Source: Owenweeksia sp. (GTDB lineage Bacteria > Bacteroidota > Bacteroidia > Flavobacteriales > Schleiferiaceae). From it: DNA of 64,000 nucleotides. The notes under the pieces are model-generated. The model made no database searches. It was not told the origin of the DNA and was given only the letters and a program-made list of their open reading frames with translations. This document shows, one piece after another, positions 35,702-43,305 of the stretch. The translations under genes and the position numbers were made by a program. The stretch's first letter is position 1; every line of letters begins with the position of its first letter. The stretch lies in assembly GCA_965218075.1 (NCBI GenBank), contig CBDCJZ010000003.1, positions 1,476,768 to 1,540,767 of the forward strand, given 5' to 3'.

Positions 35702-38700
35702 ATGAACATGAAAAAGCTTTTATTCGCCTTTGCCGCAGGGCATTTATTCACACTGCCTACCGTGATGTTGGCACAAGATGATTTCTATTACGTCTGTAAC
35801 AACGAGAAAGTTTTTTTGACGGAAGTCAGTGGAAAATATGTGATAGAATTCCCAGATGGACTGAATTCTGAAGTACAAGCCGAAATATTGCCCGGAGAAG
35901 ATGGCTATCCTAAAAAGATAAATGATAAGATTTATGTGGTAACCGATACGAATGATCTAAATAGTTACTCTTCAGATTACTACATAACCCCTATGTATAC
36001 CACAAGTGAAGGAGCAGAGCTGTATGTGACCAGAAGCATATTATTGAAGTTTAAAAGTGATGTTAGTGATTCTGCCAAAGATAATATAGAGAGCACTTAC
36101 AGCTTAGTGAATGTTAAAACCACTTCTATTTATGAGATGTACACTTGCAGCGATGCTTTGCAAACATCACGAGTAGTTTACGAAAGTGGTTTGGTAGAGT
36201 TTTGTCATCCTGATTTTATCTCTCAGGTAGAGCCGCATCATATCCCAAATGACGAATACTTTGGGAAACAATTTTATCTCCATAATACAGGGCAAATCAT
36301 CAATGATGGACGCTCAGGAACATTAGATGCAGATATCGATGCTCCCGAAGCATGGGATATTACAAAAGGAAGTAGCGATATTGTGATAGCAGTGATAGAC
36401 GAAGGCGTTACCTCAAACCATCCCGATTTGCCCAATACGAGGCAAGTTCGATTAAATGGGAGCAACTTTGGGGGTGGTGACCCCGATGACCCTTCTCCTG
36501 TAGACTCACTAGAGAAAACGACTAATCATGGCAATGCCTGTGCCGGGATAATTGCAGCAACACAAGATGATAGCATTGGCATTTCTGGAGTAGCTCCTTT
36601 ATGTAAAATTATGCCAGTTCGCATAGATTATGGAATTTCAACTTTGAGCGATTTTGCTGACGCTATTGAATTTGCATACAAAAATGGAGCGAATGTCATA
36701 TCAAATAGTTGGGGTGGAGGTACAGAATCTCTTTGTGTGATAGTTAGAGCTATAGAAAATGCAATTGATAGTGGTTCAATCGTGATATTTTCTGCAGGAA
36801 ATAAAGCTCATCATATGAATGGGTACCCAGGGTATGTTGTATTTCCTGGCAATGCTAATATTGAGGACTTGATTACCGTTGGTGCCTCCGACCGAAATAA
36901 CCAACAAGCCAATTATAGCCCTACAGGTACCGAGTTTGAAATCGCCGCTCCATCACACAGGGCTTCTTGTTGGCCCCAAGATTCCACAGAAACATCTGAA
37001 GTTTGGACTATTGATATTCCGGGCATTTATGGAAATAACCCATGGAAGGACTATCTAGACGATCCCAGATATAACCCCTGTGATGACATTCCACCTCATG
37101 GAGAGCGATTACCATCCACAGGCTCAAACCCCTTAGCTTATACTGGAAGAATGGGAGGGACTTCTGCGGCTGCTCCTCAAGTAGCTGGTGTAGCTGCCTT
37201 AATGCTTTCGGTTAACTCATGTTTAGTACCTCATCAAATTAAGGACCTATTACAAAAAACTGCCGATAAGGTTGGAGGTTATAATTACTATTGGAACCCC
37301 GATGCATTCGGGCATTCCAAAGAACTGGGTTATGGAAAATTAAATGCACACAAAGCTGTAGTAGCTGCCCAAAGTTTTCATTCTACTACTCTCGACCTGT
37401 ATATGCGAGACCGTCATGATGATTTAGGCTATGATGCCGGCTACGCTTGGACCTGGGGCTTTGATAAAAGCCCTGACATTTGGGTGAGAAATCAAAATGA
37501 TGGGCTGACCAATCATCAAAGTCAAGCTGCTGAATATTCTAGTAGCTCTCCTGTATATGTGTATGTGAGAGTGGGAAATAAAAGTTGTGTGGCTTCTACA
37601 GGTACAGAAAAATTGAGTCTGTATTGGACAAAGGCATCGAGCAATTCATCCTGGCCTCAAAATTGGGATGGCACTGACACCACTATCGGCAACAAAATAA
37701 GCACCTCAAACATCCCTGCTCTACAACCTGGACAACATACCATCCTCGAGCTTACCTGGAACACCCCAGATCCCTATATCCATAAGAAGTGGGAATTTTG
37801 CCTTTTGGCGAGGATAGAAGGGGTGGCTGCTGACCCCATCAGGGTTCATCCCAATGAGTTAGCACAAGATATTTACCAAAACAACAATGTTTCTATGCGG
37901 AACGTAGCGATAATAGATTGGGTACTCAGTATTGATGATCCCGATCTCCCTTATTATCCTCCTGGCTCCTTTGTATATGTTGGGAGTTCGAGGGACGAGG
38001 AAGTAAATGCAGACGGGGAAGGAACCGAGGAAGGAACCTATGACCTTATTTTGAGAGTCCCTGAGAGTGTTGATGGAAGTCCCCTAACGGAAGAAGCTGA
38101 AGTAAGCCTTAGGTTTGATAAGCAGGGATGGGAAATTTTCGAGTCTCAACTTCACGATCGAGAAGATGTGAGAATTAGAGGAGAAGGTGAAATTATTATA
38201 TCGGGTGCTAATATGGTGAGCTTTAACAATCTGAATTTTCCTGCTAATACGAGAATTCCCATTTATATTGGTTTCAGTTTTTTGATAGATCGGGTTTCGG
38301 AAAAGAGTGAATTTGAGTATCATCTTATCCAAAAGCACAGTACTGCACGAATTGAAGTGGAGGAGCATTGGACGGGAGGAGTTCACTTTAGAGTGAAGAA
38401 ATATCCGAGAGAACCATTCGCTGCCATTGCAACAGTATCGGATTGGGAAATAAACCGAGGCGAATCGGTAACGATTGTAGCAGAGCAGCTAGCAGAAGCA
38501 GCCATCTACAATTGGTATGACTCAGAAGACAACCTGATATCCACGGGCGAGAGTATAACCGTTTCTCCCGAGCTTACTCATACATACAAATTAGAAGTAA
38601 TTGCCCTCGCTGATGGATTTAAAGATTATAGCGAGGACTTAGAAATAACGGTAAATTCCAACAGACGATTAACCGCTTTATATCCCAACCCAGTGGAGAG

Positions 38701-38914
38701 TCTGGTAGTTATAAACTATCTAGTGGAAGATGTGAGCTCGGCCTATTTGATACTATCAGGGGTTAGCAGCGTGGACATTGGGGAGATTTATCCTTTAGAG
38801 GTAGATAATACTGTATTTACCATAAATACTGCTGATTATGAAACAGGTGTTTATACGGTAGCTTTGGTTTGTGATGATGAGATTGTGGATGTTATGGAAT
38901 TGGTAATCGAATAA
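35702..38914 (+). CDS. Secreted S8 (subtilisin-family) serine peptidase with a T9SS C-terminal sorting domain
   Basis: Signal peptide present. The catalytic triad contexts are AVIDEGV (Asp), TNHGNACAG (His) and GGTSAAAPQVAG (Ser). The C-terminus LYPNPVESLVVINY...GVYTVALVCDDEIVDVMELVIE resembles a type A Por_Secre_tail. Confidence 0.85.
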   Translation: MNMKKLLFAFAAGHLFTLPTVMLAQDDFYYVCNNEKVFLTEVSGKYVIEFPDGLNSEVQAEILPGEDGYPKKINDKIYVVTDTNDLNSYSSDYYITPMYTTSEGAELYVTRSILLKFKSDVSDSAKDNIESTYSLVNVKTTSIYEMYTCSDALQTSRVVYESGLVEFCHPDFISQVEPHHIPNDEYFGKQFYLHNTGQIINDGRSGTLDADIDAPEAWDITKGSSDIVIAVIDEGVTSNHPDLPNTRQVRLNGSNFGGGDPDDPSPVDSLEKTTNHGNACAGIIAATQDDSIGISGVAPLCKIMPVRIDYGISTLSDFADAIEFAYKNGANVISNSWGGGTESLCVIVRAIENAIDSGSIVIFSAGNKAHHMNGYPGYVVFPGNANIEDLITVGASDRNNQQANYSPTGTEFEIAAPSHRASCWPQDSTETSEVWTIDIPGIYGNNPWKDYLDDPRYNPCDDIPPHGERLPSTGSNPLAYTGRMGGTSAAAPQVAGVAALMLSVNSCLVPHQIKDLLQKTADKVGGYNYYWNPDAFGHSKELGYGKLNAHKAVVAAQSFHSTTLDLYMRDRHDDLGYDAGYAWTWGFDKSPDIWVRNQNDGLTNHQSQAAEYSSSSPVYVYVRVGNKSCVASTGTEKLSLYWTKASSNSSWPQNWDGTDTTIGNKISTSNIPALQPGQHTILELTWNTPDPYIHKKWEFCLLARIEGVAADPIRVHPNELAQDIYQNNNVSMRNVAIIDWVLSIDDPDLPYYPPGSFVYVGSSRDEEVNADGEGTEEGTYDLILRVPESVDGSPLTEEAEVSLRFDKQGWEIFESQLHDREDVRIRGEGEIIISGANMVSFNNLNFPANTRIPIYIGFSFLIDRVSEKSEFEYHLIQKHSTARIEVEEHWTGGVHFRVKKYPREPFAAIATVSDWEINRGESVTIVAEQLAEAAIYNWYDSEDNLISTGESITVSPELTHTYKLEVIALADGFKDYSEDLEITVNSNRRLTALYPNPVESLVVINYLVEDVSSAYLILSGVSSVDIGEIYPLEVDNTVFTINTADYETGVYTVALVCDDEIVDVMELVIE

Positions 38915-38976
38915 TGTTTTATGGCAAGGGAATGGAATCCCTCCACTTTTGGTTTAACTAAAAATAACTAATAATA

Positions 38977-42242: not shown

Positions 42243-42420
42243 AAGTGGATGGGGGGTAACAATGTATAATAAAAACATATATGAAACAGGTGTTTTTATA
42301 CGGTAGCTTTGGTTTGTGATGATGAGATTGTGGATGTTATGGAATTGGTAATCGAATAATGTTTTATGGCAAAGGAATGGAATCCCTCCACTTTTGATTT
42401 AACTAAAAATAACTAATAAA

Positions 42421-43104
42421 ATGAAAAGGTTAATACTTATTGCCTCCTTGTATTTTTCAATATCTAATGCTTCTGCACAGTCTGCACAGATAAGATCTAC
42501 TGATCAAATTATAGAGGTAATTAATAATCAGATGAGAATAATAAAAAGTGTGGCCTTTGAAGTTGCAATGAAGCCATGCCCGAGCTTTGAATTATTTACT
42601 TATGAAGTGTTAGATGGCGGCATCGTAGATATTCGGTTTTATTATCACATTTACAACTCCGGGCTCATCTGGAGTCCTTGTTTTAGGACAGATACTGTTT
42701 GGATTGATTTGCCCTTAAGAGGGATAGGAGAACCATTTCCAGCAGGCATTTACACGATTATTGTACATGCAGTTGGAGTATGGTATGATAGGATAAAAGG
42801 TTATCAAATAATAAGTCATGTTGTTGATACCATCGATGATGTAGCTCTTTCTGTAAATAACTATACTGCCAAAACAAATGTCATAGAGGTTTTTCCAAAT
42901 CCTTCAAGGGATATTTTCAATATGGAATATCCAAGAGGATTAGATATTTTCAATATTTCTTTGATAGATCTGCAAGGAAGGAAAATAAAGCTATTTAAAG
43001 GGTCTCAAAAACAATTGAACATCTCCGGAACTCTACCCGGCCAATATTTCCTAAATCTGGAAACCAGTAAAGGAATTATCACTGAGAAAGTGTTGATTGA
43101 GTAA
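42421..43104 (+). CDS. Small secreted T9SS cargo protein, array copy 5
   Basis: 227 aa. A 9-bp duplication tctgcacag x2 (42472-42489) lies at the signal-peptide cleavage region. It has unique variable patches. Confidence 0.8.
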   Translation: MKRLILIASLYFSISNASAQSAQIRSTDQIIEVINNQMRIIKSVAFEVAMKPCPSFELFTYEVLDGGIVDIRFYYHIYNSGLIWSPCFRTDTVWIDLPLRGIGEPFPAGIYTIIVHAVGVWYDRIKGYQIISHVVDTIDDVALSVNNYTAKTNVIEVFPNPSRDIFNMEYPRGLDIFNISLIDLQGRKIKLFKGSQKQLNISGTLPGQYFLNLETSKGIITEKVLIE

Positions 43105-43305
43105 AAGTGGATGAGGAGTAACAATGTTATAATAAAAACATAGTGGACTAAGTATGGTATAGATGCGTTTGTACGACTAAGTTATACTAGTTAAATAATG
43201 CGAAGTTGCTTTGATTTCTAAATGCAGCACTTCCGAAATCTCTGACTCTTGATATCATTCAGGTAGGGCTGCTAGAGATGACAAAACAGAGGTTAGAATC
43301 TTGCC

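Follow-up and report, generated by a model that had tools for sequence, protein, structure and literature searches.

A subtilase gene and a tandem array of loop-diversified small proteins with type IX secretion signals in Owenweeksia sp.

The 64,000-nucleotide stretch of Owenweeksia sp. contig CBDCJZ010000003.1 analyzed here (hereafter, the window) contains a gene for an S8-family subtilase followed, in the same orientation, by five direct repeats, each of which carries one gene for a small protein. The intact small proteins have a Sec signal and a type IX secretion system (T9SS) C-terminal sorting domain (CTD). Their genes are nearly identical outside two short patches which bear the signature of positive selection, and the pair formed by the S8 gene and a single small gene is also found in two metagenome-assembled genomes (MAGs) of Bacteroidota. 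This picture of structure and evolution has good support; as regards function, we tentatively favor a reading in which the small proteins are surface-displayed, loop-mediated binders, the ancestral partner of which was the protease and which have been expanded into a repertoire of specificities.

Architecture of the tandem array

A previous interpretation of the region, made from the nucleotide sequence alone (the sequence-only reading), described an S8 gene and, downstream of it, an amplified, loop-diversified family of small T9SS cargo genes. The five-unit array bears out this description, and the position at which the sequence-only reading had placed the end of the module, 43142, is the exact end of the array. 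The features of the module are as follows.

35702-38914, + strand: S8 subtilase gene, an intact open reading frame (ORF) of 1070 aa
38678-38911, + strand: probable T9SS type A sorting domain of the S8 protein (C-terminal 78 residues; sub-threshold)
38837-43142, + strand: tandem array of five direct units of 864, 861, 858, 860, and 863 nt
38915-38976, + strand: native spacer of 62 nt between the S8 gene and the small gene, with a degenerate hairpin, AGGGA-N6-TCCCT (element 38938-38965), and then CACTTTTGGTTTAAC
38977-39663, + strand: small gene copy 1, 228 aa, with the most divergent framework (P0001)
39843-40524, + strand: small gene copy 2, frameshifted by an extra A at 40113/40114, with ORFs at 39843-40127 and 40084-40524
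40704-41381, + strand: small gene copy 3, 225 aa (P0002)
41562-42242, + strand: small gene copy 4, 226 aa (P0014)
42421-43104, + strand: small gene copy 5, 227 aa, with the patches that diverge most and 9 nt inserted in the signal peptide (P0015)
39701-39780, 40562-40641, 41420-41499, and 42280-42359, + strand: the four non-coding remnants of the S8 3′ end, with the TT insertion

Each unit opens with the 3′ end of the S8 gene (78-80 nt) and continues through the native 62-nt spacer and one small gene into a tail of 37-38 nt. Every spacer between the small genes holds the final 78 nt of the S8 gene, stop codon included and with the same TT insertion, followed by the native 62-nt intergenic region, confirming the earlier claim that the amplified unit physically includes the 3′ end of the protease gene. 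Exact motif mapping showed that the four internal unit junctions are all identical, with AAAAACATA abutting TATGAAACAGG. This identity indicates that the repeat was founded by one illegitimate duplication, which took in the last 78 nt of the S8 gene, the spacer, the small gene, and the 38 nt beyond it, and was then enlarged to five units by homologous unequal crossing-over. The framework, the sorting domain, and the spacers are 97-100% identical among copies. The site patterns display a two-unit periodicity, with units 2 and 4 being nearly identical and units 3 and 5 having 5′ features in common; probably, one expansion step duplicated a two-unit block. Removal of the extra A from copy 2 restores a frame of 226 aa, and the public annotation likewise represents this copy by two fragments (P0003 and P0004); copy 2 is either a pseudogene or the product of a sequencing error.

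Near-identical repeats of 861 nt are hard to assemble, and the indel in copy 2 might be taken as a further sign that a single gene, or a few alleles of a mixed population, had been laid out in tandem by the assembler. We consider such an artifact highly unlikely: each unit has substitutions and indels of its own, the two-unit periodicity is consistent, the junctions are intact, and both NCBI and ENA have the source record as one contig of 2.25 Mb.

The protease and the export signals

The S8 protein comprises a Sec signal (approximately aa 1-25), a catalytic domain (aa 225-524), a beta-rich region of approximately 470 aa without an assigned domain, and a probable T9SS CTD (aa 993-1070). The catalytic domain is matched by PF00082 in Pfam (E 1.4e-46; 159.6 bits with a cut-off of 21.8; residues 225-524), and the catalytic residues are all in place, namely, D233 (in AVIDEG), H276 (NHGNAC), the oxyanion-hole N367 (SAGN), and S488 (GTSAAAP), all four being invariant in both MAG orthologues. 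In the PDB, mirolase of Tannerella forsythia comes closest (8ehe; E 1e-37; the runner-up scored 1e-28). Judging from the residues present and this best match, the protease is catalytically intact and mirolase-like.

The sequence-only reading had attributed Sec signals and T9SS sorting domains to all six genes, which is correct for the four intact small proteins but overstated for the other two genes, as copy 2 is broken and the S8 domain remains below threshold. The Por_Secre_tail profile (PF18962) matched the S8 C-terminus with E 0.037 and 14.7 bits, under the cut-off of 27, and TIGR04183 was not among the NCBIfam matches. Nevertheless, comparison with the CTDs of the small proteins using hhalign gave E 4e-4 over 67 columns, the domain has PNP and GxYxV motifs, and its top two PDB profile matches are T9SS CTDs (E ~1; weakly, the mirolase CTD, E 0.94). 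Thus, the S8 C-terminus is likely a T9SS sorting domain, even though it scores below the curated threshold.

The small proteins consist of a Sec signal, an N-terminal domain of approximately 135 aa (N-domain), and a T9SS CTD. The signal ends in ...SNASA followed by E, a site of the signal peptidase I (SPase I) type; its sole Cys, which follows a Leu, is replaced by Tyr in copies 3 and 5, and the signal is not of the lipoprotein type. The sorting domain, covering the C-terminal 70-75 residues, scores above threshold with both Por_Secre_tail (E 5e-11 to 2e-10; 41-43 bits with a cut-off of 27) and TIGR04183 (E ~1e-10; 41 bits with a cut-off of 23). These signals imply that the small proteins would leave the cell via Sec and then T9SS, to be displayed on or released from the cell surface. 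In this respect they resemble T9SS type A cargo, from which they differ in that the passenger is undescribed and unusually small and the gene is tandemly amplified.

Apart from the sorting domain, searches of Pfam, NCBIfam, PADLOC, PHROGs, and PDB sequence profiles matched nothing in the small proteins, consistent with the earlier remark that the N-domain was not recognized as any named family; it represents an undescribed family known from three genomes only. By contrast, the segment VVDTIDD, which had been regarded as a linker preceding the sorting domain, includes family-invariant D, T, and D residues and is probably part of the fold. Several other identities were considered and rejected. 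An SdrD_B, Cna-B, or prealbumin-like repeat found no Pfam match at E up to 1; an origin of the N-domain from the protease found no relationship when compared, using hhalign, with the full S8 alignment; and a precursor of a ribosomally synthesized and post-translationally modified peptide is at odds with proteins of 225-228 aa that have a predicted beta fold and Sec and T9SS signals.

Two hypervariable loops

Variation among the copies is concentrated in two patches of the N-domain, each located at a conserved Cys.

39103-39144, 39969-40010, 40827-40868, 41688-41729, and 42553-42591, + strand: hypervariable patch 1 of copies 1 to 5, predicted beta2-beta3 loop, includes Cys 1; pattern F-x5-P-G-C-x2-F
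39199-39240, 40065-40103, 40923-40961, 41784-41822, and 42646-42684, + strand: hypervariable patch 2 of copies 1 to 5, predicted beta4-beta5 loop, includes Cys 2; pattern YY-x5-G-x3-4-(R/S)-P-C

Variable nucleotide columns account for 38 of 84 in the patches versus 26 of 609 elsewhere. The diversity is therefore focused on the two patches, as previously proposed, but is not confined to them: minor variation occurs at the mature N-terminus, in residues 96-111, and, as the insertion mentioned above, in the signal peptide of copy 5. Positions with at least three residue states fall almost entirely (14 of 15) inside the 18 loop positions (hypergeometric P 1e-14), and odds ratios for the patches versus the rest are 8-70. 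Gly and aromatic residues abound in patch 2 (GFGFG, VFHGFG, YNSGLIW), and the patches of copy 2 are nearly identical to those of copy 4. Within the patches, both cysteines and the Pro/Gly anchors are strictly conserved, and the sorting domain and the segment before it are essentially identical among copies.

Variable sites at codon positions 1, 2, and 3 number 18, 14, and 6 in the patches and 8, 10, and 8 elsewhere. Using the Nei-Gojobori method, the proportions of non-synonymous (pN) and synonymous (pS) differences in the patches are 0.25-0.46 and 0-0.25, respectively, for all pairs but the near-identical copies 2 and 4; outside the patches, pN is ~0.02 and pS is 0.01-0.04. Copies 1 and 2 have 22 non-synonymous and no synonymous differences in the patches, and another divergent pair has 22.5 versus 1.5. 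It should be noted that each patch offers only 8-10 synonymous sites, so that the pN/pS ratios are indicative rather than precise. Collectively, these values are the signature of positive selection on the patches, the remainder of the unit apparently being shaped by recent amplification or concerted evolution.

Some of the same figures could be accommodated by a recent neutral amplification, with unconstrained loops in which older divergence survived while gene conversion homogenized the rest. Framework pN is close to pS, as reflected in the 8/10/8 codon-position counts, copy 2 is already frameshifted, the site patterns are mosaic and conversion-like, and pS in the patches exceeds that of the framework. 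However, relaxed constraint predicts dN/dS of approximately 1, whereas non-synonymous differences exceed synonymous ones in the patches of every divergent pair, third codon positions are the least variable there, and the cysteines and Pro/Gly anchors are strictly kept. We therefore regard this explanation as unlikely. Even less probable, to the point of being nearly negligible, is programmed variation by a diversity-generating retroelement or by cassette gene conversion from silent donors. Such a mechanism would be in keeping with sharply localized variation in otherwise identical copies, but the 45 window ORFs of at least 150 aa include no reverse transcriptase, recombinase, or transposase, no template-like copy is found in the 64 kb, and the public protein sets of the same 2.25-Mb genome contain no further copies. 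Furthermore, approximately 12 of 15 consecutive nucleotide positions vary, with 3-nt indels in addition, and the changes are not adenine-specific. Regardless of the function of the small proteins, the array cleanly illustrates how the gene for a bacterial secreted protein can undergo tandem amplification and concerted evolution while positive selection focuses on its loops.

The location of the patches on the predicted fold was obtained from two AlphaFold2 (AF2) runs, with 4 and 8 sequences, which reached predicted local distance difference test (pLDDT) values of 40 and 59, respectively; in the second model, values are 45-65 for the N-domain and 64-85 for the sorting domain. Five N-terminal strands are common to both runs, and the better one has seven. 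The patches map to the beta2-beta3 and beta4-beta5 connections and the minor variable positions to the N-terminus and the beta6-beta7 turn. As strands 3 and 4 are joined by a tight hairpin with a three-residue turn, both main loops would share one end of the domain, that opposite the C-terminal linker, a placement deduced from strand order rather than read from a trustworthy model. An exported protein could plausibly have its two loop cysteines joined by a disulfide. Foldseek, which the sequence-only reading had suggested running on an AlphaFold model, recovered the sorting domain (best PDB match, the T9SS-bound CTD 8glk_D; TMt 0.81) but assigned no fold to the N-domain, for which the low-confidence model gave no match below E 1e-3 and weak Ig-like matches at E above 0.01.

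Relatives and linkage to the S8 gene

A k-mer search with a single small-protein sequence matched the source genome only, and an exhaustive HMMER search of 1.84 billion representatives returned the source genome and weak repeat matches. The latter, from giant SdrD_B-repeat proteins, were discounted, being 3-10 bits per repeat and due to a motif of 30-40 residues which is absent from the MAG homologues. A protease scan of species-representative genomes identified one S8 orthologue (61.5% identity) in a Bacteroidota MAG, with a homologue of the small protein, 220 aa long, encoded directly downstream. When this sequence was added to the profile, four homologues were recovered in two Bacteroidota MAGs; a wider profile added none. 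Two metagenome scans and a viral scan yielded no relatives save one distant S8 protein. The homologues are distributed as follows.

Bacteroidota MAG (locus L001): linked copy P0010, 63 nt downstream of the orthologous S8 gene; unlinked copy P0011
Bacteroidales MAG: linked copy P0012, 64 nt downstream of the orthologous S8 gene; unlinked copy P0013

Hence, all three genomes with the family keep one small gene 62, 63, or 64 nt 3′ of an orthologous S8 gene. The presence of a single copy 63-64 nt downstream of the S8 gene in the two MAGs indicates that the pair is a conserved ancestral unit, restricted to this lineage, that the single copy is the ancestral state, and that the amplification is specific to this genome, and it independently confirms the earlier proposal that the small gene was the immediate neighbor of the protease gene before expansion. 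The survey of co-occurrence with S8 suggested at that stage thus gave a divided answer: a linked copy exists in all three genomes, but two of the four homologues outside the source genome are unlinked, and the linkage, as judged from these loci, is conserved yet not obligatory for every paralogue. The wider gene context differs between genomes. One MAG has SprB and PorP/SprF upstream, and in the window the module lies between nucleotide-sugar genes and frr-pyrH-tsf-rpsB.

N-domain identity is 26-29% between genomes whose S8 proteins share 58.5-61.5% over their full length, implying a far higher rate of evolution in the N-domain than in the protease. Among the sorting domains, that of the window copies (39438-39663) shares 54% identity with its counterpart in P0011 (L004 1606-2265) but only approximately 25% with those in P0010, P0012, and P0013; the N-domains group the opposite way, which suggests exchange of sorting domains within the family. 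At locus L001, the small gene is followed at a distance of 5 nt by a 386-aa gene (4551-5711) that weakly matches Por_Secre_tail (E 4e-4), and the module of this MAG may include a third T9SS cargo gene.

Possible functions of the small proteins

The KLIKK peptidases of T. forsythia, mirolase included, are secreted by T9SS and each is co-transcribed with a small beta-barrel inhibitor (PMC9890683). These inhibitors, the potempins, are anchored on the outer membrane and shield the cell surface (PMC9890683). Potempin C (PotC) inhibits mirolase by the standard mechanism, its reactive loop being disulfide-linked to a scaffold loop, and PotA inhibits via loops beta2-beta3 and beta4-beta5 (PMC9890683). 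Potempin genes lie upstream of the peptidase gene, overlapping it or at most 5 bp away, and encode lipoproteins of 98-132 residues that use the ordinary secretory pathway; they are single-copy except for PotB1/B2, and the solved folds are the OB-fold or an up-and-down barrel with eight strands (PMC9890683). The module described here is similar in coupling a subtilase gene to a gene for a small secreted protein, predicted to be all-beta, and, on the AF2 topology only, two Cys-flanked variable loops would occupy the same beta2-beta3 and beta4-beta5 connections as in PotA and recall the disulfide-linked loop of PotC. In contrast to potempins, the small gene is located downstream, after 62 nt, is amplified and hypervariable, and encodes proteins with an SPase I-type signal and a T9SS CTD rather than lipoproteins. 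A PDB-wide profile search returned no potempin similarity at E up to 10. Unlike the KLIKK peptidases, the protease lacks the KLIKK C-terminal ending, terminating instead in ...DVMELVIE, and there is no potempin lipoprotein gene 5′ of S8, where the 258-nt gap holds only ORFs of at most 34 aa. Gene position, the non-lipoprotein signal, T9SS export, and the lack of sequence similarity to potempins together indicate that the small proteins are not potempins.

Comparable gene neighborhoods are found outside T9SS. In the staphopain-staphostatin, AprA-AprI, and SpeB-Spi pairs, a small beta-rich protein encoded beside a secreted protease protects the producer. The module shares with them the position of the small gene next to that of a secreted protease; staphostatin, AprI, and Spi, however, are cytoplasmic or periplasmic, single-copy, and conserved, and target cysteine proteases or metalloproteases. 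The confinement of change to loops is shared with Kazal/ovomucoid inhibitors, the serpin reactive center loop, and SSI, in which fast non-synonymous change affects an exposed, disulfide-braced loop of a conserved small scaffold, often in multigene families; the small proteins have no sequence relation or confident fold relation to these. Family searches found no homology of the small proteins to known inhibitors. As a system type, the module varies known themes, namely, the protease that comes with a small linked partner and the multigene family subject to diversifying selection.

In the binder reading that we tentatively favor, the two hypervariable loops, probably stapled by a disulfide, would together form the predicted binding site, with the co-encoded protease as the most likely ancestral partner. 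By analogy with the action of potempins on KLIKK peptidases, the small protein may act as a surface shield or inhibitor, and the amplified, diversified copies would widen the range of proteases or other ligands recognized. If the small proteins do bind or inhibit the linked subtilase, the logic of a protease plus a surface shield, known only from T. forsythia, would be more general in Bacteroidota and would have arisen on a different scaffold and export route. The N-domain itself, with two natural hypervariable, Cys-braced loops on an invariant framework of approximately 135 residues, might serve as a model for the evolution of specificity or as an engineering scaffold.

Several observations weigh against this reading. 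The window encodes a single protease versus four different loop sets, an ill fit to simple cognate self-inhibition: either other proteases are the targets of the additional copies or the ligand is of another kind. Of the four homologues found beyond the source genome, two, P0011 and P0013, have no adjacent S8 gene, and a family drawn from three genomes only makes for thin linkage statistics. Loop variability in the MAG paralogues exceeds that of the remaining domain slightly at most. Finally, the AF2 models, with their predicted fold and putative disulfide, are of low confidence, and the N-domain displays no homology to known inhibitor or binding domains in Pfam, NCBIfam, PDB profile, or Foldseek searches. 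The more specific proposal, that the small proteins constitute a new class of T9SS-exported, surface-anchored protease inhibitors with two disulfide-stapled loops, independent analogues of potempins that form a germline repertoire under diversifying selection, is possible but doubtful; if true, it would point to an arms race at the bacterial cell surface against both own and foreign secreted subtilases.

Alternatively, the small proteins could be surface-binding modules for external ligands, such as adhesins, lectins, or substrate-capture adaptors, tied to the protease only by co-expression or by cooperation in nutrient acquisition rather than by inhibition. Several loop sets with identical upstream regions would then amount to a co-expressed repertoire, and the Gly- and aromatic-rich patch 2, the Ig-like resemblance, and the existence of S8-unlinked paralogues are all compatible with this possibility. 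However, no adhesin or lectin family was matched in Pfam, NCBIfam, or PDB profiles, the Ig-like matches come from the low-confidence model at E above 0.01, and the conserved 62-64-nt adjacency to S8 in three genomes would be left unexplained. We consider this a reasonable but questionable alternative. A role as abundant surface antigens or phage receptors, with diversification serving escape from recognition by phages, predators, or a host and with no biochemical link to the protease, is rather improbable. Positive selection on loops predicted to be exposed, the very fast evolution of the N-domain between genomes, and the nature of surface-destined T9SS cargo would all suit such a role. Nonetheless, the window lacks invertible promoters, recombinases, and silent cassettes, which argues against classical antigenic variation with one variant expressed at a time; having the same upstream sequence, all copies are probably expressed together, which would neither hide an epitope nor remove a receptor; and no PADLOC or PHROG match or viral homologue was found.

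Elements associated with the small genes

Compared with the degenerate hairpin of the window, the 63- and 64-nt spacers of the MAGs carry a strong hairpin, CAGAGGG-N4-6-CCCTCTG, at the equivalent place. The MAG element (-14 to -23 kcal/mol) is followed by a T-rich run and TTAAC and is located 30-45 nt upstream of the small gene. It is found at L001 ~3840-3880, L003 ~9955-9995, and L002 ~9950-9990, the last being an S8-unlinked paralogue, whereas only the 3′ arm is left in L004. The element travels with the small gene and may be an S8 terminator, an attenuator, or an operator.

The sequence TAGCTTTG occurs at 38859-38866, inside the S8 3′ end, and in its four remnants; it is not conserved in the MAG loci. 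It matches TAnnTTTG, the Bacteroidetes -7 promoter consensus, and, if a functional promoter, could account for the protease 3′ end being kept in the amplified unit. A scan for sigma-70 promoters and terminators, with a model ill-suited to Bacteroidota, produced results at the level of shuffled sequences. In each unit, an AT-rich imperfect inverted repeat of 17-25 nt, 82-84% complementary (39686-39703 with 40048-40065), joins the unit junction to the codons for DIRFYY just 5′ of patch 2, and is probably a chance match in AT-rich DNA. An invertible promoter was rejected, as repeats of this kind were the only ones found.

Other features of the window

No T9SS core genes are present in the 64-kb window, and no tRNA, rRNA, or Rfam family was detected at the gathering threshold across positions 1-64000. 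A 1468-aa ORF at 8141-12547 (+ strand), without a Pfam match even at E 0.1, encodes a large orphan protein, and three ORFs on the - strand, of 392 aa (12761-13939), 175 aa (28127-28654), and 253 aa (30098-30859), lack significant Pfam matches, the first having faint NHL/SGL-like matches only. At 17528-19980 (+ strand), a gene for an ABC-2 membrane protein is followed by one for an ABC_transp_aux (PF09822) protein; by domain content, the pair resembles the gldF/gldG gliding-motility transporter, which fits an origin from Bacteroidota.

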